This document shows, one piece after another, positions 50,923 to 63,492 of a stretch of 64,000 nucleotides of DNA (position 1 is its first letter; each line of letters starts with the position of its first letter). Below the pieces are notes generated by a model. The model was not told the origin of the DNA and searched no databases. It saw nothing but the letters and a program-made list of their open reading frames with translations. The stretch spans positions 35,652,001 to 35,716,000 of the forward strand of contig NC_086108.1 of the NCBI RefSeq assembly GCF_963921235.1, given 5' to 3'. Origin of the DNA: Mobula hypostoma (lineage: Eukaryota). Both the position numbers and the translations under genes were made by a program.

Positions 50923-51759
50923 TGTTGACTATCATCGACTGATCTAGGTTAGGCAATTCACTACACAACTCTTAATTAATTAAAGCTTGAATTTTATTGT
51001 CTCTGCACAAACCATGTTGAACCCCAGACCAGCAATCTACTGTTCCCTTTCTACCAATAATCTCACTCAGACCATTTCTCCAATTTATAATGATGAAAAA
51101 TGGGATCTCCCGCTGGACAAACGACTGATCTTTCTTCTCCCAGCTCCTGGCATGGGGGTCTTCCTTGTGATAGTTAGTCTCTAGAGTTCTAGCCGCTTCA
51201 CATTTGAATCCCCTCATTCTTATACACTTTCCTTATCAGTTCAAATGCTGTGTTTCCATCTCGTTGGCTCTGGCCTATCCGGCTAACGTGTATCAGCTTT
51301 CCACTGGTTCTGGTCCAAGCCAGCATCACTTTATTGCCCAATTCACAAATAATAACTCGTAGTTAATGTCTCTTTGTTCTGAATCATGGCAGACCAGCCA
51401 GTTACCAAGCTTGGATTACTCAGGTCAGACACAGACTCCCCTAATCATGAATGCATGTTTTATTTTAGCAAAGAACACCTCACAAATAACTTTTAATTTG
51501 GAAATATTTGGTAGTTCAGCAGATTATCAGGATTACCATTATGTACATATTAAAGCACGTTGAAACAACTATTCCTGAGCAGAACCAGTTCACACAACAG
51601 CTCACAAAATGGAGATTACAGAGCAGCTCCACAAAATGGCAGCCACCATTCCATCAACCACATGGCAAAAATAAAGACAATTGGTTTGTCTACTTCCACT
51701 ATACTTGACTCATTTGAGTTAGATGTTTTCTTTCATACTGCAATTCCTTATGGCCAACA
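50923..51759 (-). repeat. 3' LTR of the endogenous retrovirus
   Basis: Starts TGTTGG directly after a G-rich tract (51760-51782), ends TCAACA; minus-strand TATAAG near 51220 and AATAAA at 50993-50998. Confidence 0.75.
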
Positions 51760-53732
51760 TCCACCCCCCCCCACCGCCTTTTGATCCACAGAAAATGCTA
51801 GAGATCACATTATTGTTTATGTGTCTGAGTTTAATACAGTCCAAACGGAACGCCAGCATTCACGACAACACCAAATAATACTGATAAAGATACAAGCAAA
51901 ATATCATAGATGTAAAGCGTAGATATCAAAGCCAGCATATTTAAAAATATCAGTACCAATGCACATAAAAGAACATAATAAAACATACCTAATTTCATAC
52001 CATATATTGCCATATATAACAACAAATAAAATATAATGATGTACAAGTACATAATACTATGTAAGACAACATCATGGTGCAAAGTCAGACAAAATCACCA
52101 AAAAGAAACATGGCTCATAAACACTTAAGCTGTTTTAGTTGCCATTGAAAACCACGAAGCAAATTACATTGGATATCATTAAAACAAAGTGCAGAACTAT
52201 AATAACATGTTAAATAATATGAATTCAAGAATATACATTAGCGTTTAGACACCAGTTCCAAACCTTACTCCAAAAGGGTGGATTCTGCAAAACATCACTA
52301 GCTAAATCTGCATGATCTTGAATAGTCTCGGATAATTCATCCCATTGCATAATAATGACTTCATTATGGTTAACTGTGCAGTAAAATAAGGGATAGGTGG
52401 AAGAGCAGGAAATACATACCTAACTAAGCCCTCAGTAATATTATTGATACATACATTCAAGTGAATAGGTGGTTTTACAACAGCTTTGGGTGATAATTGA
52501 CCAACCAAAACTAAGTCCCTCAAAACACTGGAAACCACCACCATAAAGCTAACAAACTGCAAACTAAAGATCCCTTCTTGTAAAGTGTGTTTGAAGTACC
52601 AATCATTCACCAAAGCAAATTTTAGCAATGTCCTGTTATTGAGAGGCAAAATAGAAAGAGAATATTTACTATAAGAAATAAACCCACAATTTGTTAATCC
52701 ATTCTTAGCTAACCCCAATATTCTCCCTTATGATGACAAATTTACAGCCGTAGAGATCCTTGTCATTTAATAGCATATGAGGTAGATTAGTACGTGAAGT
52801 CCAAACTCCTTCTTGATATTTCCTGACATTATAGCGGGTATGCTCAGTTGTCACTGTGCTGATGAATATGAAGAACAGCTCCAACATACAGTGGTCCATG
52901 TTAACTCCATTTACAGAAAGTAACAAGAGGTAGAGGTTGTACATACAGTATTCTTATTATGTTGAGTAGATTCATTGTTAATTCTGTCAATAATTTGGCT
53001 TGTCATATCTCCCAAGGATTGTAAAATATGGAAGATTCCCGAAACTACATTTGCTTGTAGCTTACCTAAAGTGCTCACTCCTCCCATAGCCTCACAATCT
53101 CGATTTTAAATTTCTTTCACCTTTTTTGCCTTAGAGAATTTTAACTGAGAGTTTACCTCTGCAATATCTAGTGTATTTACTGTGGAAAATCTAACAGCCA
53201 ATTCAATAAGCCCCCTTCTTCACCTCTCTTGTGTTTTAAATTCTGAATAGGTAAACTGCTCAATTAGTAAATGTTGGGAAAACTCCTAGAGGCTTAATCT
53301 ACACCAGCTGGGAATGTGGAGGGAAGTCAAGTTGAACAACACTTACACATCTCTCTATCCCAGTACCTGAATAATTCAATCTTCTGTTTCTTCTGACGCA
53401 ACTCCCTTTCTATATGTCTGAAGCTCATCACACAATATAGGGCTAGTAACAGATGGCACTGCAATGGTTGTATCCTAATCCATTAGAGAGTCTAAGTCAT
53501 ATTAGACTCTAATATCTTTAGTTGAACTATTGACATGCAGGTTTAAGAAACCATCCTAGATTTACCTAACAAATTCTACCCCATATAAGTCCCTGGCAAT
53601 AAAGAAGTCTCAGGTCAGTACTGGAAATTAAAGTCACCCACTGTGTGATGTTGTCGACTCAATCATGGGGTAAGTTATACATGGAAGGTCTCAAGGCTCC
53701 AGAGCAACTGGGGTTGAGGTGCCTGGGGCACA

Positions 53733-54325
53733 TATAACCATATAACCATATAACAATTACAGCACGGAAACAGGCCATCTCAGCCCTTCTAGTCTGTGCC
53801 GAACTCTTACCCTACCTATTCCCACCGACCTGCACTCAGCCCATAACCCTCCATTCCTTTCCTGTCCAGATATCTATCCAATTTAACTTTACGCGACAAC
53901 ATAGAACCTGCCTCAACCACTTCTGCTGGAAGCTCATTTCACACAGCTACCACTCTCTGAGTAAAGAAGTTCCCCCTCACGTTACCCCTAAACTTTTGTC
54001 CTCTAATTCTTAACCCATGCCTTCTTGTTTGAATCTTCCCCACTCTCAATGGAAAAGGTCTATCCACGTCAACTCTATCAATCCCCCTCATAATTTTAAA
54101 CACCTCTATCAAGTCTCCCCTCAACCTTCTACGCTCCAAAGAATAAAGACCTAACTTGTTCAACCTTTCTCTGTAACTTAGGAGATGAAACCCAGGCAAC
54201 ATTTTAGTATCTTCTGTACTCTCTCAATTTTATTGACATCCTTCCTATAATTTGGTGACCAGAACAATATTCCAGATTTGGCCTTACCAATGCCTTATAC
54301 AAATTCAACATTACATCCCAATTAC
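53733..54325 (-). mobile_element. CR1 3' fragment inserted in env
   Basis: LSYRERLNKLGLYSLERRRLRGDLIEV and (ATATGGTT)n tail. Confidence 0.93.
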
Positions 54326-54521
54326 ATCCCACATGCTAACCGATGATCTCATTTCTGATTTGTGTCCATGTCAACAGTACTATTACATTCACAATGAAGA
54401 TGTACTTAAGTTAAAAGCCCTCTTTTTCCCGAAATAGGACAGAAAAAAATACATGGCTTCCCACTGTTAGCCTAGCACTCCCATCTTTCCCCCCATAATC
54501 ACCATTACTTGCCCCTGATTA

Positions 54522-55974
54522 CACTGGACAGCAATTTTTTTTCAAAGGTGTCACTTCCTCAGAAATATATTGTAATTATGATAGACCATTTGAATCTAAA
54601 CACAAAAGTAATTTCAGACTACTCGCAACACATCAGAATCTGGAGAAACAATAAACTAGCTTTTATTGAATACAATGTGTTTAATTGCTTAATGGTGCAA
54701 ACACTTTGCAATAGTTCACTAAGTAAAAAATGTTTTGTTGAGGATTTTTGTTTGTACTCAGTGTCTGAGGCTTCTCACTTAAGTGTCTAACAATAATCAG
54801 CCAGCATCAATGGATTCTAATTGCCCTAAACCCATTTCTCCATGACCACAAACTCCTGGTGAAACCTTTCACCATGCTTGTCACTGGCAGTGCCACAATT
54901 TGCAGGGAAGAAGTCTAAATGGGAATGCAGAAAAAGAACCTTTAGTGACATGTTGCACTTCATGGTCTTGTATTCTGGAAGTATGTTGTCAACCAGCTGC
55001 ACGTAGCTTGGTGCTTTGTAGTTACCAAAAAAATTTCAACACTATTCTTGTATGCCTTCCATGTGATTTTCTCCAGTCCCACTAAAAGTTCTTCAAATTG
55101 CCTGTCAATTTGATGGCCTGTTTGATTTGTGGATCAACACAAATGCCTTCCTTAATTTTGGCATCAGTTATTCTGGGAAACACCTGCTAGAGTATTGAAA
55201 TCCTTCAAGGATAGTTTTGTGCCTCGTGACAGCAGATTCCATCCTCGCAGTCTTGAACCCAGTAATTCTGCTTTTGCCTTTGACAAACCCAAGTCTCTGA
55301 ACAAGTCATTTAACTCAGATTGAGTTATCAGATGAGGCTCACTCAACATAAAAGGTTCAAAATCTGTATCAGAATTTGTGTCATTTTCCATTTCTGGCTC
55401 GTACGTTGTGGCATCTTCGTCTGCCTTCTCTGGACTCCATGTCTCTGGTAGCTTTGGCACTGGGGGACCACCGTCATACGGCACAGGTCTTATGGCTGAA
55501 GGAGATTGGGCATTCAATGGATTTCTTGTTTTTAGCAGAGAAACCAGACACATTTGTCAGACAGAAGTAGCATTCTGTCACATGATCCTTCTGCTCTTGC
55601 CATATCATTGGACGGTGAACGGCATTGACTTCCAAGTACCTCCCAGCCAAGCTCTAAGATCGACAGCGCATGTTGTGCAACAAATGTGAGGAGCCCAGGC
55701 TTTGTCTTTGTCACTATTTTTCCACCTAAAATAGAGTTCATAGGCTTTCTTAATAAGAGGAATCATGCTCCGTCTTTGAGATTTAAACGTATAATCACTA
55801 CAGATATAATAGGAAGTATCACAGCTGTTGCAACATTGGCGAGACATTTTGCTATCACAGATACTCCTGAAAATACAACTACTTTATTATAATTACACAC
55901 AATATGATATGTGCAGAGAGCATGTGCATCAATGTGATCGCAAACCGACATACATGCAAACAAAGTTCACAGAA

Positions 55975-56007
<33 letters not shown>

Positions 56008-56272
56008 ATGCTTTTATAGCCTTTCTAAAACCATGCAGCATTCGTCTTGTCTGAGCATGCCCAGGCATGCACAGAGAAGGTATAAAACTTTTCAACTTAC
56101 ATTATGGGCAACATTTTAATTGACTTGAATTATGATTTGAAATAATAAATATTGGCAATTTAAAAGATGGTGTGTGATAGGGAAATTTCATGGTGATTCT
56201 CATGACCAGCAGCCCAAAATCCATAAGACACACCCAAAGGTATTCAGGAAGCAAATTCTTTGTCATTGAGTG
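54522..56272 (-). mobile_element. Chapaev3 DNA transposon with internal deletion, inserted in env
   Basis: CAC...GTG termini with TTA on both sides; N-terminal Cys-rich domain (KKAYELYF, WAPHICC), ELNDLFRDLGLSKAKAELLGSRL, C-terminal SD.HGERFHQ. Confidence 0.9.
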
Positions 56273-56784
56273 TTACCAACAGACATTGGTCTTACTTGTA
56301 TTACAAAATCTTGTCTCAATTCTTCATAATTTCATACTACCATTTCATCTTCCTCATTCACAGAGTCTACTATGACCATGGCATCTGATGGAATCCATCT
56401 GCCTCCAACCCAATCTTCATACCTTGCATCTGTCCAGATGAATATATAATTATCCAATACTTTATTGTAGAACATATAACCTTCAGCAAAGCCTTCAACT
56501 GTTATGAGGCCACTCATCAGTAGTATATCAACACAAATCATTTCAGAATACCTGGAGAAAAACATTGGGCAGTTTCTGCACTTATCTAACTATTTGATAT
56601 TTGCTCTAAATTTAACTCTTCCATCTCTTGCTCAACTCACTGACTGGGGCAACTGCTCCTTCATCCTCATCACCATCAATTGCCTGAAAAATATATCTAA
56701 GATCATTATCATCTCCATACAGAACATCCCATTGACAGTGTGCTTTATGGACCTCAGCTGCAAGAAGACATTGACTTTCTCCAA

Positions 56785-59700
56785 GGGGCTAAGTTGGTTA
56801 ATGCTATCCAACCTTATTTATTAGGAGAAGTCTAGGTTTGATAGACAGACGGACTGTTTCTGTCAAGGACATCATCTGGTGCTACAAACCTTGGAGATGT
56901 CAAGGAAACTAGCTGATGTACTGAGATCATAACCTTCTGTCCTAATTCCAACTCCTTATGTTTCATTTGCATGTCTAAGTAAGCATTACTCTGCTGTTTC
57001 TTTTGTCCCATATTATGGGCTGCAACATAATGGGTTTCCTTGATATTGTCAATTAATTGCAGTACTCATTTTTCCTTTACAATACCATCATACTCAGGCT
57101 CTGATAAATCTAGCCCAACCAGGAATCCTAACACTCTTATTTCTCTCCCAGTCATCAATTTAAAGGTGTTAACCCAGTGGAAGAAGCTCTGCTGGTATAG
57201 ATTATCATAAGGACATGGGGTAAGACAGAGACCCATGTGCTCTTGTGCTGTTTAACCATCTTAGGCAATATTGTCTTTAAAGTCCTGTTCATCCATTCAA
57301 CCATTCCACTGGACTGAGCCCAATAAGGGATGTAGAACTTCTATTTTTGCCCAAACAGCTTCATCAGATTTTGCAGTGAAATCTTCATCTGGTTCCAGAC
57401 TCCTTGGCACTCCCCAATAGGTAAAAACTCTCTCAAACAAAATCTGAGCTATTAACTTGGTGGTGTTATTTTGAGTTGGGAAAGCCTCTATCCACTTGGC
57501 ATAAGTATTCACTATCATTAGGATATATTTCAGTTCTCCAGGTCTCACAAAATCAATCTGCAGGTTAACCCATGCCTTCCACAGGGTGTGTGTGTCTGAA
57601 TACAGCCAAATGAAACAACATTCCTCTGGGACAAAGGTGGAAAACACAGTACCAATAGTCATACACAGCATGAAGCATATACAGCACAAGTAAGGCATTG
57701 AAGCTGGGGTGCTCCGCTAGTAGCAGTGTGGTGTGGTGTCCAGGCTGGAATCGGTGCTGCCCCCCAGTGTTCACTTGGAAGAAGACAAGCTGAACCTCAA
57801 GCCAAATGTCACTTGTTTACAGCCACCAGGAGAGAAGCGTCAGAGACAGCACACTCCATCTGGGAGCGATGTGGTGTGGTGTCCAGTCTGGAATGAGTGC
57901 TGCCCCCAGTGTTTCCTTAGAAGAAGACATGCTGTATTATGGTTGACTGCAGATTTCTGCTACATTCATAGACTCAGGATCTGGAGTATTTTTTGTTTTA
58001 CATGGTGGTATTTTACTGATGTCTTACACATACTGGCTATCTTGTACATGCTATGTCTGCTTGGTGCTGTGTGTGACTGTTGGTTCTGTGTTTTGCACTG
58101 TGTCCCGGAGTAATACTGTTTCATTTGGCGATATTCATGTTTGATCGAATGATAATTGAACTTGAATTGAATTGATTGAATTGAATAATATAGCAGTAAA
58201 ATGCAGTCACACGAAAAAATATAGCCCAAGTTCCAAAATGACATGTCCCATAGCTTGATGGTGCATGGATGTTGTCAGCAAGAACAAGCCCTCAACAGTC
58301 CAGACGAATGCACACAATCCAGCTTGTCTTCCACTGAGTGAACACTGGGGGGTGGCACCTACAGGAGGGCCAGCCCCCAGTCCAGCATGGATGCCATGCC
58401 ACAACAAAGACCACACAACTCCCCACCGTTAAAGGCCAACGGGGTCTTGTGATCACAAGAAAAATGTCTCAGGCAATCATTCACTGTTTGACAGCATACC
58501 ACTTCTGTCCACTGGCTCCGAAACCCTTCTGTAGTGGGAAGCAACATGGTTCGCATCAAGTTCAGCTCCTCCGTCAATGAGCAACCTGCTGATGGGGTAG
58601 GCCAGTAGTACTTGAAGTTCTTAATGTCCAGTAGCATCTTGCAAACATAAAAAAGACAAAAGCACATTTGTTCGGCCCTGGAGAGGCCGCTGTGTCTGAG
58701 CACTCCACCAACTGACTGGAAGTCTCCCTCTGTATCTGGATTCCATTTCTCCCCACACTTTGCTGCTAATTTGGCTAACTCATCTGCCTTCACATTCCCT
58801 TCCAGAGATGTTTTTAAGCGAGCCCTTATCTTTTTTGCTTAATAAGTGTTCCCTCTTGCCTTCTCAAATATACCGTATACTTCAAGTGTGCTGATGGTAA
58901 AGGTATACAATCTGCTGAAATGTAACCTCTACCTTCCCATAACAGTAAAAATTCAGTCAAACTATTACAAAGGTACAGACTGCCTGGGTGTAAGATTGCT
59001 GCTGAAGGATATCTCCCTGCATGGCTGCCAACAACAGCTTATAGCAGCAAGCTCTGCCACTTGCACACTCATTGTTCTGGGAACGCGATCGCAACTCTTT
59101 CAATCTCTACTCCTTCCTTGTCCTCTACATGTATATCAAATCCTGTAAGCCTCTCTCCATCATGAGCTGATGACAATCCATCAACAAAGATCCCTAAAGA
59201 GGAAATTTCTGGTCTCGTGACTTCAGTTTCCTCTCCTGATTTTATGATGGGAACAACTGGTCCTTTCCATACTTGTTCTGCTGTCACCTGGCATTCATGA
59301 GTTTCACTCCGATAAGTTAAATTGTCGGTGGTCATGGCTGTCTTGTTAATTCTTTTAACTGTGACATTATGACTCTGTAATAGCAATGTCTATCAGGCTA
59401 GTTGAGTTTGACAGATTGTTACATCCTTGATTTGGCCATCCAGCAAAAGCTGGATGAGAATATGCTCTGTTAAGTTGGTTGGTGGATTAAGACCCACAAT
59501 ATAAGTGAACTGTTTAACTGCACAAAACACTGCTAATAGATGACAGTCACATGGTGTATATCCTTGTTTGATTGGGGTAAGCATTCGAGATGCATATGCC
59601 CCTGGCTCCAGTTTGCCATGTGCCTCCTGGAGTCACACAACTGATGTTGCATTATTGGTGGCAGGAACCTCCAAGGAGAATGGCTCGGAAAGGTTTGGGG

Positions 59701-61100
59701 TCTTAAGAGCAGGTGCTCCTGCAAGGCTGGTTTTAAGATCTGAAACTGCCTTTGTGTGTTCCAGTTTCCATTCCCATGGAACACCTATCTTCAAGAGCCC
59801 CATAAGTGGGTAAGATTGGCGGCAAAGTCATCTATGTGGACTCTACAAAGCCCTACCAAACCAAGAAACAACCCCAATCCCCTCACATCAGCGGGAAAAG
59901 GCAGTTCTGCCATAACACGTACACACAGTTTATCAATCTCTCGCCTTCCAGGGGATACGACCACCCCCAAGTAACTAACCTACTGTGTTACGATTTAAGC
60001 TTTTTTGGGGGTTTACCTTTAGACCCGTCTGCTGTAAAAGTTGCTGTAGCTCTTTAGGTAACTCAAAATGCTCCTCTTGAGTCTTTGTCTGTTACAGTAA
60101 TCTACATATTGAATTAAAAACTAGGGAGCTGAAAAGGATTTCAGCCCATTTGCCAACCATTGACAGAAAAAGACAGGCAAATCATGAAAACCTTTCATAC
60201 TGTCTATTTATACTGTTGTCCCTTTCAAGTGAATTGAAATTTACATTGATACTCTCTTTTCAAAGGAACAGACCAAAATCTATTACTTATATCCAGTACT
60301 GTGAACCACTTTGCTACAGTATTCTGCTTAATCAGTCTTGGGACTCGATGCTACAGTGGAGGGAGTTAAAGGAGTTCCCTGCAATCTATTGTGAGTCTCC
60401 AGTTTCCATCAAATGTTTGAACTGGTTATAAAGGAGAATTATTTGTAGATGTCATTTCTAACAAAACTCCCCATGTTAACAAACTCTGAAAAACATTCTC
60501 TAAATCTGCCTCTGCTTGTTTTGGAATTCCATTTTGCTTCTGTGGTTTCAGGTGCGGGCCTCATATACACACCTCTCCTTTCATCCTGCCACAGTCGTGT
60601 TCATGTTTAGCAAATACTGCCTGGCAGTCTAAAATAATTTATCCCCCATCATATCTTCTGCCTTCACCCACATCTCCCCAGCTGTACATGCCCTTCCCCA
60701 TATTGTCTGACTGGAATGTTTATAGGGAGCAGCTCCTTATCAACATTAAAGTACCAAATCATACAATTATTTGGATTAAATCCAAACCCAATTTCCTAAT
60801 AGAATCATTTCCCAGAATATGATTTTGAGCAATTGGCAGGTTGATGAGCTCAACCAAGTGGGGCACACTCAGTTGTCCCATCCATATATGTACAGATATG
60901 TAATCAACTCCCCTACCTGTGAATACCCAGTTAATCCAATTAAAAGAATAGTATTCTGTGTTTCCCAACCAGGTGCATTGAATGTGGATGTATTCAGGGT
61001 GTTTTGAGAGCTTCCTTTATCCCAAAAAAATTTTATAGGGCCGCCTTCTGTTCTAGCTTCTACAAGAGGTCTACCTGCACCATCCCACCTTGCGGTGTAT
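56785..61100 (-). pseudogene. pol: Retroviral pro-pol remnant (protease, RT, tether, RNase H, integrase)
   Basis: Protease region GRPLV...FWDKGSS; RT GNWRLTID, LDISN.FWSVPL, QYVD; tether AYASRML...HLLAVF.AVKQF; RNase H IFVDG.S, QVAELAA, GNVKADELAK; integrase LQIDF, KWIEAFPT, SSGMVE.MNRTLK. Confidence 0.9.
57580..58740. mobile_element. Cluster of Rex-like tails and unknown repeats interrupting the integrase N-terminus
   Basis: Oppositely oriented tails near 57590-57690 and 58040-58190; ~60-bp direct repeat at 57727 and 57870. Confidence 0.55.
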
Positions 61101-61199
61101 AGCCACATAATGGAGGCCTGACACCACCTTTGCACACTGGGAGTCCATCCCCATAGGTAACTATGGATACAGTAGAGGTTTCGTCTCTGCTCCCTGGAC

Positions 61200-63459
61200 A
61201 TTACATTGTGGGGAACATGGTGGACCTTCCAGGGGCAATGGAGCCTTAGTTACAACCTGACCTTTCCCAACCCATCTGGGTTGTGAGCAGTCTCTAGCAA
61301 AGAGACCTTAATGTCCATAGTTGAAACATTTCCATGGGAGTCTACTATTCATAACAGGAGGAATGTCGATTTTCCAGCCACATCCTCAACCGCCCTTGGC
61401 AATAGGTGGTGCTACCAAGCACGAAGGTGGCATAGCATACCCTGATAGGCTTCCCATCCATACTCTGACAGATTTCCCATCCATGCCCTGATAGGCTTCC
61501 CATCCATACTCTGACAGATTTCCCATCCATGCCCTGACAGGCTTCCCATCCATACTCTGACAGATTTCCCATCCATGCCCTGACAGGCTTCCCATCCATA
61601 CTCTGACAGATTTCCCATCCATACCCTGATAGGCTTCCCATCCATACTCTGACAGATTTCCCATCCATACCCTGATAGGCTTCCCATCCATACTCTGACA
61701 GATTTCCCATCCATACCCTGATAGGCTTCCCATCCATACTCTGACAGATTTCCCATCCATACCCTGATAGGCTTCCCATCCATACTCTGACAGATTTCCC
61801 ATCCATACCCTGATAGGCTTCCCATCCATACTCTGACAGATTTCCCATCCATACCCTGACAGGCTTCCCATCCATGCCTTGATAGGCTTCCCATCCATAC
61901 TCTGACAGATTTCCCATCCATACCCTGATAGGCTTCCCATCCATACTCTGACAGATTTCCCATCCATACCCTGATAGGCTTCCCATCCATACTCTGACAG
62001 ATTTCCCATCCATACCCTGATAGGCTTCCCATCCATACTCTGACAGATTTCCCATCCATACCCTGATAGGCTTCCCATCCATACTCTGACAGATTTCCCA
62101 TCCATACCCTGATAGGCTTCCCATCCATACTCTGACAGATTTCCCATCCATACCCTGATAGGCTTCCCATCCATACTCTGACAGATTTCCCATCCATACC
62201 CTGATAGGCTTCCCATCCATACTCTGACAGATTTCCCATCCATACCCTGATAGGCTTCCCATCCATGCTCTGACAGATTTCCCATCCATGCCCTGACAGG
62301 CTTCCCATCTCCCTTCATTCTGCCACTGTGCACCTTGTTCTCTCATAGGGGCCAATTTAGAACCCTGTTTCCCCTTATCCTCCTTAGTAACTTTTCCCTT
62401 ACTTCCTTTTCCCAACTTGTATCATCCCTCTGAGGACTCATGCTACAGTGTGTGTGGGATCAGTGGGATCAAACACTTCACGCACCCTTCTGCTCTCCTA
62501 GGTATTGTGCAACACCGCAGTCCTCAGGCAGTTATCACCCAGCTGTTCAGTCAAGTTCCGCCTATCCAAAATAGAACTGTAAACACTGGTGAAAACCGAC
62601 TACAACCTTGTTGCAAGTGCACTGGGGTGTTACCCTTTCTGCCCTCTGCATCTGTGCAGAGCCTCTACTGGGTCACCTCGATCAGTCCCTGCAGCTTCTA
62701 ATATAAATCACTCCGGCCTTGTACCTGTTCCTCTGGCAGGGCTGAGTGTAACAAAGAAGTTAGAGACAGAAGGGTGAACTTTGGCTCCTCTGCTTCGTCT
62801 AAACCATGAACTATCCTGTGCTGCTGGATGCACTGGAAAAGTTCTGGAGGATCCTCTCCCAGCCCTCGCGTTGGTACAGTATATTCGCAGCTATAGCACT
62901 CAACTGAGCCACGTCAAAAAGGGTTGAGTACTGAGTTACAACTGGTCCTCACACCCGAGCCCCCTCCTGGCTCTGGTATCTCCCGAACTCTCTCTATTAC
63001 CACCGGCATTGTTGGGGCAGTGGATGCTGAAGGTTCCATCCCCTCTTGGAGAAGTCCAGAGGGAGATGGGCCAATTTCCCAAAATCCTCACAATTATAGT
63101 GCGCCACCTCACACGCTAAATCACCCCAATCTATATCACCTTCATCATCTGTCCTCACCCCTAATGCATGTATCACTCCTCTCTGAGCTGAGAGTTGACT
63201 TGCAGTTTCTCAATCTGTTTTATACTCTTGGTGTGATCAAGGATGCCTTTCTTTCCTGCTGCCAATTTCTGCACAACGTTCATAGCAGTCTGTAAATTAT
63301 GACACTAACTTTTCCACTTCTCTAATTGCGTATTTGCCTATTTATGATCCTCTTCCCTTTTCTCCTTTTCCCTTATCATATATTCACACCGAGCCTGAAA
63401 CTGAGTCGTGTGTATCAAATTCAGCTGACACTGCTCCCTCAATCTTTTCACTTTCTTCC

Positions 63460-63460
<1 letters not shown>
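61200..63460 (-). pseudogene. gag: Retroviral gag remnant (coiled coil, capsid-like region, degenerate CCHC knuckle), 5'-truncated
   Basis: Charged helical N-terminal part (REKEKREEDHK...CHNLQTAM...KQIEKLQ), GDPVEALHRCR...HPSALATRL, and CFNYGH*GLFARDC near 61285-61330. Confidence 0.8.
61440..62309. repeat. Minisatellite of 38 x 23-bp monomers arranged as a 46-bp A/B dimer
   Basis: A = CCCTGATAGGCTTCCCATCCATA, B = CTCTGACAGATTTCCCATCCATA; one A-A irregularity near 61855-61900. Confidence 0.97.

Positions 63461-63492
<32 letters not shown>
63461..63492. repeat. (TC)n microsatellite at the provirus truncation point
   Basis: Direct inspection. Confidence 0.95.

Follow-up and report, generated by a model that had tools for sequence, protein, structure and literature searches.

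The window analysed here, a stretch of 64,000 nucleotides of the Mobula hypostoma genome (contig C50:35652001-35716000), carries between positions 50923 and 63491 an old and broken endogenous retrovirus (ERV) with all of its genes on the minus strand. We consider it probable that this element is the fossil provirus of an old multi-copy ERV family in this cartilaginous-fish genome, which lies on the canonical-retrovirus side of the retroviral tree, resembles snakehead retrovirus (SnRV), encodes an envelope protein (Env) of the paramyxovirus/pneumovirus fusion protein (F) type and stands outside the lokiretroviruses, to which the initial annotation had assigned it.

The minus strand was translated by reading through stop codons (set as X) and scanned with Pfam. 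Together with tblastn searches using relatives from the same genome, this clearly supported the strand, gene order and coordinates of the initial annotation, namely gag, protease (PR), reverse transcriptase (RT), a dead RNase H tether, RNase H, integrase (IN), env, polypurine tract (PPT) and 3′ long terminal repeat (LTR). The tblastn matches for gag, PR, RT, tether, RNase H, IN and env were collinear, with E values from 1e-8 to 3e-68, and homology to other copies reached ~63491, 30 nt past the end first annotated. The viral features are the following (ORF, open reading frame).

62423..63433, minus strand: gag, the long helix of its N-terminal part lying at 63248-63433 (matched by sister gag in tblastn, E 3e-11 to 4e-9)
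61287..61334, minus strand: remnant of the nucleocapsid CCHC zinc knuckle (peptide located; a sister-family ORF matches zf-CCHC, E 5.5e-6)
60632..61180, minus strand: protease region (sister PR-RT ORFs match in tblastn, E 1e-25 and 1e-10; no Pfam match)
59800..60629, minus strand: reverse transcriptase in two frames, YVDD decayed to YVDY (RT profile and Pfam)
59441..59770, minus strand: tether, a dead Ty3/Gypsy-type RNase H-like domain (RT_RNaseH_2, E 7.3e-17, 61.7 bits at a cut-off of 29.8 bits)
58737..59197, minus strand: second RNase H of the cellular/retroviral type with one frame change (own RNase H profile, E 4.3e-6; tblastn, E 1.6e-41 and 3.5e-9)
56835..57593, minus strand: integrase core and C-terminal part in three frames (own IN profile, tblastn, Pfam rve)
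52075..56562, minus strand: F-type env in pieces (tblastn with the intact family Env, E 3e-68, 1.6e-52 and 6e-22)
51760..51782, minus strand: polypurine tract of 23 nt, AAAAGGCGGTGGGGGGGGGTGGA, read directly and abutting the 3′ LTR on its upstream side
50923..51759, minus strand: 3′ LTR of 837 bp with TG...CA ends (69-80% identity to the LTRs of six other copies and to many LTR-only loci)

For phylogenetic placement, 120 Pol proteins were gathered with their Pfam labels, and the RT fragments of 27 loci were aligned to one shared profile, leaving a gap at each break. In the window the RT profile matched over its positions 24-173 and 176-307 (scores 232 and 78), and Pfam RVT_1 matched weakly (E 0.0011). 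The RT tree was calculated with IQ-TREE under LG+C20 from 58 of 145 rows and 304 columns and was rooted on 16 Ty3-type rows; near-identical rows, a long-branch locus (L038), a duplicate locus (L003) and two loci with low fill (L015 and L020) were left out, and support is given as UFBoot/SH-aLRT. To identify the lokiretrovirus (Loki) clade, we looked for exact matches to motifs of the consensus Pol that has been published. Three proteins (P0095, P0097 and P0099) carry these motifs, two of which, CPFGYSNSP and QYKLAFS, were counted 38 and 32 times in the portion available of the PMC7947760 supplement, and their clade was supported at 100/100. Its sister is a clade of 39 rows (100/99) which contains the window family together with canonical-type ERVs; its members are the window family, its sister families, the Xenopus protein P0058, which groups with the window family, P0060, P0064/P0069 and a class-I-type set of 20 rows. 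Grouping the window superfamily with the Loki clade cost 46.6 log-likelihood units and was rejected by the approximately unbiased (AU) test (p 0.002). The IN tree (43 rows) gave the same order with weaker support (SH-aLRT 83). The window sequence behind it matches our IN profile over positions 83-293 (E 1.7e-18 and 8.6e-16), with a tblastn match at E 3.5e-47 and a Pfam rve match at E 0.0029 from a single ORF piece, and the same profile gave no signal in the window for the N-terminal zinc-binding domain.

The nearest named reference of the family is probably SnRV, judging from signature motifs of the RT, and we refer to the family as SnRV-like. The supplement of PMC7947760 (818,833 characters) contains six RT motifs that characterise the window superfamily (DGSWRL, ECQY, QQYTWT, LPQGFH, IFHQ and NPKK) 3, 3, 3, 3, 3 and 2 times, respectively, and each of its passages that was listed belongs to an SnRV row; SWRLTIDY occurs three times in the listed passages, in SnRV only. 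Among the references in these parts of the supplement, seven of seven shared motifs point only to SnRV, and the rows of simian foamy virus (SFV) and coelacanth endogenous foamy-like virus (CoEFV), in the parts seen, contain by eye none of the motifs searched. Over two conserved RT segments the identity counted by eye was 31/43 and 20/45 to SnRV versus 25/43 and 14/45 to walleye dermal sarcoma virus (WDSV). Scanning viral contigs with a single canonical Pol gave four pattern matches, none of which was confirmed. SnRV-like ERVs have already been reported in the elephant shark (CmiERV lineage I, Han 2015, PMC4422223) and, according to the sections available of two further papers, occur in Xenopus tropicalis in ~9 copies (PMC4131045) and have been treated as a deep ERV clade (PMC4977317).

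The second line of evidence concerns Env. In the window, env is preserved in five pieces (56562-56272, ~54513-54328, 53732-53649, 53471-52926 and 52897-52144) with 12 stops in 425 codons, at least four frame changes and ~57 codons missing near 52926/52897. A protein search of the genome revealed one copy, on contig C2 (L024), with an open env frame of 741 aa, and the window Env is 69% identical to this intact Env over residues 203-390. The intact protein is hydrophobic at its N-terminus, contains an RRRR site with GLIEFMGLGY... behind it and ends in a membrane anchor plus a tail of ~24 residues; the putative cleavage site would read RRRR/GLIEF in the intact copy and RxRR/GLIEL in the window.

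The F fold was analysed on the intact L024 Env by an AlphaFold2 (AF2) model calculated from a 26-row alignment. Residues ~214-600 were modelled with a pLDDT of 64-90. In the model one long helix and a beta-rich domain are followed by a second helix and by the anchor. In a Foldseek search against PDB, which gave 246 matches at E ≤ 0.001, all of the top 50 ranks shown were paramyxovirus or pneumovirus F proteins, the best match being the post-fusion F of respiratory syncytial virus (RSV; 1.4e-11). The nearest ESM Atlas clusters were of the Fusion_gly and Baculo_F types at 0.94, and Gypsy/Baculo_F clusters were also listed. At the level of the predicted fold, the family Env is confirmed as a paramyxovirus/pneumovirus F type.

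Sequence relatives of this Env are few. A HMMER scan of 1.84 billion representatives with the family Env yielded only 36 at E ≤ 0.001, and of the 20 that were looked up, 16 come from sharks, a skate and other cartilaginous fishes and two from frogs (Pelodytes and Xenopus). A single one of the 26 relatives scanned, P0032, matched the Pfam F family PF00523 (4.7e-6, 25.6 bits, under the cut-off of 29.8). The family Env matches P0032 at E 1.5e-5 with ~26% identity over 260 residues, and P0032 by eye closely matches the Loki-Sau and Loki-Bsp Env in the part available of the PMC7947760 supplement. Because of the match to P0032 and the likeness of P0032 to these two proteins, the family Env appears to be a distant sequence relative of genuine Loki Env. 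The F-type Env of the initial annotation is supported by the Foldseek fold match, whereas in sequence the link to PF00523 runs only through this Loki-type Env. Two host-annotated proteins, P0026 (Heterodontus fbxo15 isoform X3) and P0012 (an ankyrin/ion-channel protein), hold a piece of this Env family, which may reflect chimeric gene models or the exonisation of ERV fragments.

Several observations weigh against the reading as an SnRV-like element with an F-type Env. The Env model is moderate overall (mean pLDDT 56.7, pTM 0.39), and PF00523 did not match the window env, the env of two other copies or the intact L024 Env; Pfam scanning of 34 ORF fragments of the window likewise gave no PF00523. 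A phmmer search of PDB sequences with the intact Env returned no match, and an Env profile found nothing significant among them, seven of its 17 weak matches being pneumovirus F0 (E 0.65-9.6). SnRV Env is not among the 36 HMMER relatives as far as these were named (20 looked up, the rest short). The link to SnRV consists of motif sharing and by-eye segment identity, with motifs taken from the sister families and not from the decayed window copy. The trees were built from rows other than SnRV, WDSV, foamy virus and class II sequences, so they do not fix the position relative to crown Retroviridae; the window superfamily and P0064/P0069 are joined only weakly (80/76), and the group used in the AU test was chosen after the tree had been seen. 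Finally, in the RNase H tree the family falls with Loki on one side of a split, supported at 99, which sets off the class-I-type RNase H. As this tree disagrees with the RT and IN placement, Pol may be a mosaic.

This disagreement might be explained by an ancient recombination, in which a lokiretrovirus-like virus donated env, and perhaps also RNase H, to a canonical-side, SnRV-like gag-pol; the alternative is that the two lineages share an F-type Env by descent. RT and IN lie on the canonical side and RNase H and Env nearer to Loki, and repeated replacement of RNase H and IN in retroviruses has been described (Wang and Han, PMC7947760, in the sections available). The Env is only ~26% identical to Loki Env over the 260 aligned residues, however, and any transfer would therefore be very old. 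Moreover, the RNase H tree is unrooted, has 40 rows and 157 columns that represent neither foamy viruses nor other references, and places the Xenopus protein and others on the Loki side too; common inheritance explains the same data. We regard a recombinant origin as rather unlikely.

Membership in the lokiretroviruses, either within a described family or as a new one, appears very improbable. The features which point to it are the F-type Env with its weak homology to genuine Loki Env, the dual RNase H, the position of RNase H on the Loki side of the main split and the Env relatives in frogs, a published Loki host group. Dual RNase H carries little weight here. Matches to RT_RNaseH_2 for the tether and to the RNase H profile and tblastn relatives for the second domain did establish a decayed provirus with both domains, as initially annotated, and sister elements match Pfam RNase_H at 6e-20 and 4e-10, but this arrangement is common to all retroviruses and does not discriminate lokiretroviruses. 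The tether indeed resembles a Ty3/Gypsy RNase H, and the read-through also matches RT_RNaseH (E 4.2e-9); the resemblance is nevertheless not diagnostic, as the tether of a canonical ERV of the same genome, bearing MLVIN_C and RVP, matches RT_RNaseH_2 equally well (9.5e-17). Its residues show the first domain to be a dead tether, as it is throughout the retroviruses. Five alignment columns hold an invariant acidic residue in 15 of 15 Ty3-type proteins; in the window and two sister copies these columns are occupied by T/A/P, E/R/K, T/I/H, E/E/E and a gap, and most of the acidic residues are lost alike in the window family, Loki and the class-I set. A word-index search of longer proteins with the tether-RNase H read-through gave no match.

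The remaining evidence places the element outside Loki. Its RT is separated from the motif-verified Loki clade by the 100/99 branch, with the AU test and the IN tree in agreement, and seven motifs of the family RT (QYKFAFTF, NSPSIFH, YCRDHI, LPQGFHNSP, DYRELN, VDDLLLQ and YTWTALPQ) have no occurrence in the published Loki sequences in the parts covered of the PMC7947760 supplement. Gag is also unrelated, as a BLASTP comparison of a sister-family Gag with a Loki polyprotein (P0097) revealed no similarity (best E 2.3). The N-terminal coiled coil of Gag described initially was recovered as a long predicted helix; when gag of a sister family was modelled with AF2, it comprised residues 2-79 (~78 residues, pLDDT 57-88; below 50 past residue 80). 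Its supposed SMC-like character was not, since the Pfam scans of gag contained no SMC family, a feature which is optional among lokiretroviruses. In the tree, whose rows comprised Ty3-type, Loki and canonical-type ERV sequences, the RT did not literally fall inside epsilonretroviruses, spumaviruses or Ty3/Gypsy, the placements which the initial annotation had set against its assignment, and the Ty3-type rows split off at 100/99.

An epsilonretrovirus-like ERV of class I (WDSV or Xen1 type) seems very improbable. Some RT motifs are by eye like those of WDSV (AFTF.G.QYTWT.LPQGF and FLGLVGYCR, compared over the portion of sequence available), and epsilon-like ERVs are known in the elephant shark (PMC4422223). 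The RT segments, however, are closer to SnRV than to WDSV, the family lies outside the 20-row set (100/96) that holds all class-I-type proteins bearing MLVIN_C and Gag_p30, its RNase H does not belong to the class-I type, and the sister integrases have no MLVIN_C, of which P0058 shows only a trace (E 0.0081). A vertebrate Ty3/Gypsy element of the errantivirus-like kind can practically be dismissed: F-type env is common in invertebrate Ty3/gypsy elements (bioRxiv 10.1101/2023.10.26.564294, in the text available) and ESM Atlas lists the Gypsy/Baculo_F clusters, but the RT is split from the 16 Ty3-type rows at 100/99 and the IN from 15 at 99, a second RNase H of the Pfam RNase_H type follows a dead first one, and, in its available text, the same preprint reports that these invertebrate elements have no relatives in vertebrates.

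On the favoured reading, that of an SnRV-like retrovirus with an F-type Env, the ancestral virus would have possessed an LTR, a gag encoding a long N-terminal helix, capsid and CCHC nucleocapsid, protease and RT, followed downstream by a dead RNase H tether, an active RNase H, integrase, env, PPT and LTR. Its Env would have been a class I fusion protein of the paramyxovirus/pneumovirus F type. Starting from the N-terminus, it presumably had a signal peptide and a long N-terminal part, then a polybasic cleavage site with a hydrophobic fusion peptide after it; a long heptad-repeat helix, a beta-rich domain and a second helix would have come next, ahead of the membrane anchor and a short tail. 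Such a protein may have been primed by furin-type cleavage and may have driven membrane fusion by refolding into the long-helix post-fusion form.

A search of the genome for less decayed copies, proposed with the initial annotation, was successful and yielded the intact L024 env as well as several better-kept sister families. The sister families (L025, L027, L030-L032, L036 and L037) are less decayed than the window element and share the N-terminal helix of gag, the dead tether, matches to Pfam RNase_H and Integrase_H2C2 and, at 37-41% identity, a related env. Since several of them share this layout, the lineage appears to have diversified within this genome.

The intact env frame spans L024:1790-4015 (G000:C2:126459289-126461514) with 741 codons free of stops. 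The provirus around it is as old as the other copies, with an LTR-LTR distance (Kimura two-parameter, K2P) of 0.20 and large deletions in pol, and an env of this length would by arithmetic contain ~21 stops if they were as dense as in the window copy. In Hypanus sabinus, an annotated protein of 745 aa (LOC132401028) shows 93% identity across 99% of its length. Judged from these sequences, the intact env on C2 may be a co-opted host gene, and the data fit purifying selection on a captured env. None of the sequencing runs listed as RNA covers the intact env locus; nine runs hold part of it, their RNA status being a guess. In one of the runs (X1) short pieces identical to the L024 locus lie inside and upstream of the ORF, and in another (X2) a single contig of 2,875 nt covers L024 2126-4998 with 159 differences and 12 gaps; neither is readable as expression.

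The window copy itself is dead, being 5′-truncated, broken in every gene and interrupted by four blocks of foreign or expanded DNA. To define these blocks, six fuller copies from the same genome (3.48 Gb searched) were aligned to the window. The four blocks extra in the window copy are a minisatellite, a stretch between RNase H and integrase and two inserts in env; they are listed with the truncation point (TRF, Tandem Repeats Finder; LINE, long interspersed nuclear element).

63461..63492, no strand: (TC)16 microsatellite at the 5′ truncation point, where homology to other copies ends and LTR and leader are missing
61298..62421, no strand: 46-bp minisatellite inside gag (TRF core 61436-62309, 19 copies, 97% matches)
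57594..58736, no strand: 1.14-kb stretch with inverted and direct repeats (three other copies have 379-444 bp)
54412..56276, no strand: ~1.8-kb nested insertion in env (copies C71 and C18 join window ~56650/56277 to ~54415)
53740..54330, minus strand: nested LINE 3′ fragment of ~0.59 kb in env (flanks contiguous in C18 and C71; ORF 53939-54223)

The nested insertions recognised in the initial annotation were thus verified, the flanks of each insert being contiguous or far closer together in the six other copies. Other copies carry a 5′ LTR and a leader of ~380 bp ahead of the point where window homology begins, and no 5′ LTR was present in the window or in the next 10 kb; since LTR and leader are missing at and beyond the microsatellite, we infer that the copy was truncated at (TC)16. 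In two other copies, C71 and C68 (L023 and L021), the 5′ LTR is followed by decayed TGG-like primer-binding-site strings beginning TGGCATCCC and TTGACATCCC, respectively. As initially remarked, the ORF track scarcely reveals the provirus. In the last 13 kb there are 79 stop-to-stop frames of at least 60 aa, with a minus-strand maximum of 159 aa apart from the minisatellite frame.

In the other copies the site of the minisatellite measures only 52-85 bp. The 46-bp unit, present in ~19-24 copies, is open in all three minus-strand frames and produces misleading ORFs of 300-358 aa with spurious Pfam matches. Between RNase H and the integrase core, the window has ~0.8 kb of surplus DNA compared to the other copies, and 57594..58736 is probably inserted or rearranged DNA, through which the zinc finger of the integrase was lost or hidden. 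The LINE insert matches an unrelated genomic place at 90%; a peptide motif suggests that it may be CR1-like, and it has no Pfam match. The ~1.8-kb insert contains minus-strand ORF fragments, and its low boundary is uncertain by ~100 nt, the tblastn env signal extending up to ~54513-54582 near this boundary. Fragments within it (54829-55966, minus strand) resemble a decayed transposon protein, e.g., ...FLHSHLDFFPANCG...GERFHQ..., and five of its ORF pieces matched no Pfam family at E ≤ 0.01.

Searching the genome with a 1.7-kb pol probe gave 57 matches of 68-85% identity, and a 2.9-kb env-LTR probe gave 52, ~30 of which were LTR-only and solo-LTR-like. Copies of the window family are 68-82% identical, and the first ten checked for long ORFs were all decayed. 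As the LTR-LTR K2P is 0.20-0.28 in four other proviruses, the family is very old. Two further loci, L034 (G000:C59:61980000-61988000) and L035 (G000:C2:216146000-216154000), represent a different, canonical class-I-type ERV with RVP, RVT_1, RNase_H, rve and MLVIN_C and long open pol frames of 690, 721 and 595 aa, which served as control and as a tree row. A third ERV type, L038:1545-2837 (G000:C140), has an RT frame with a tandem repeat of approximately seven 27-residue units around YIDD, and a long branch.

Lokiretroviruses have been set apart partly by an Env that resembles the F protein of negative-strand RNA viruses and not a retroviral Env. The family described here joins such an F-type Env with canonical-side RT and integrase, apparently near SnRV, an exogenous fish retrovirus still circulating in cell lines. 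In the open-access full texts, no pairing of an SnRV-like Pol with an F-type Env was found, nor, in those parts of them that were available, a statement on the fold of SnRV or SnRV-like Env; literature on an endogenous retrovirus with a paramyxovirus fusion glycoprotein in a shark was not found either, and among the papers listed on syncytins and elasmobranchs none was relevant. If the pairing is true, it raises the questions how F-type Env was inherited or exchanged among deep retroviral lineages, which Env the first retroviruses carried and whether SnRV itself is of the F type. We tentatively suggest, as a possibility about which considerable doubt is appropriate, that the F-type Env is native to a second, SnRV-like lineage of cartilaginous fishes and frogs, being either ancestral or exchanged between deep lineages, and that one copy was kept as a stingray host gene.

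Retroviruses with an F-type env would extend to the cartilaginous fishes, which were scored negative in the survey of lokiretroviruses (Wang and Han 2020, PMC7947760): in the portion available of its supplement, three genomes of Orectolobiformes were screened with no positive and Callorhinchus is unmarked. The intact env copy would be a possible case of envelope capture outside mammals and lizards, in a lineage of live-bearing rays. The window copy itself is an ordinary dead fossil with no present viral activity.

Compared to known systems, the family is like SnRV-like ERVs in its RT signature motifs, in its hosts among cartilaginous fishes and frogs and in the gag-pro-pol-env plan with dual RNase H at an estimated full length of ~9.6 kb. 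It differs from SnRV, whose Env tail has 136 residues and which has accessory ORFs according to the part available of PMC12193657, in an Env tail of ~24 residues. With lokiretroviruses it shares an F-type Env with polybasic cleavage site and fusion peptide, weakly homologous in sequence (E 1.5e-5), as well as dual RNase H on the same side of the main RNase H split, whereas its RT and IN lie outside the Loki clade and its Gag is unrelated, with no smc-like part found. Among paramyxovirus and pneumovirus F proteins (RSV, human metapneumovirus, human parainfluenza virus 3, Newcastle disease virus, Nipah virus and Langya virus), the post-fusion forms fit the modelled Env ectodomain best, with target-normalised TM-scores of 0.41-0.56; compared to these, the family Env is only 9-14% identical, has an extra N-terminal region of ~210 residues outside the model and is encoded by a retrovirus.

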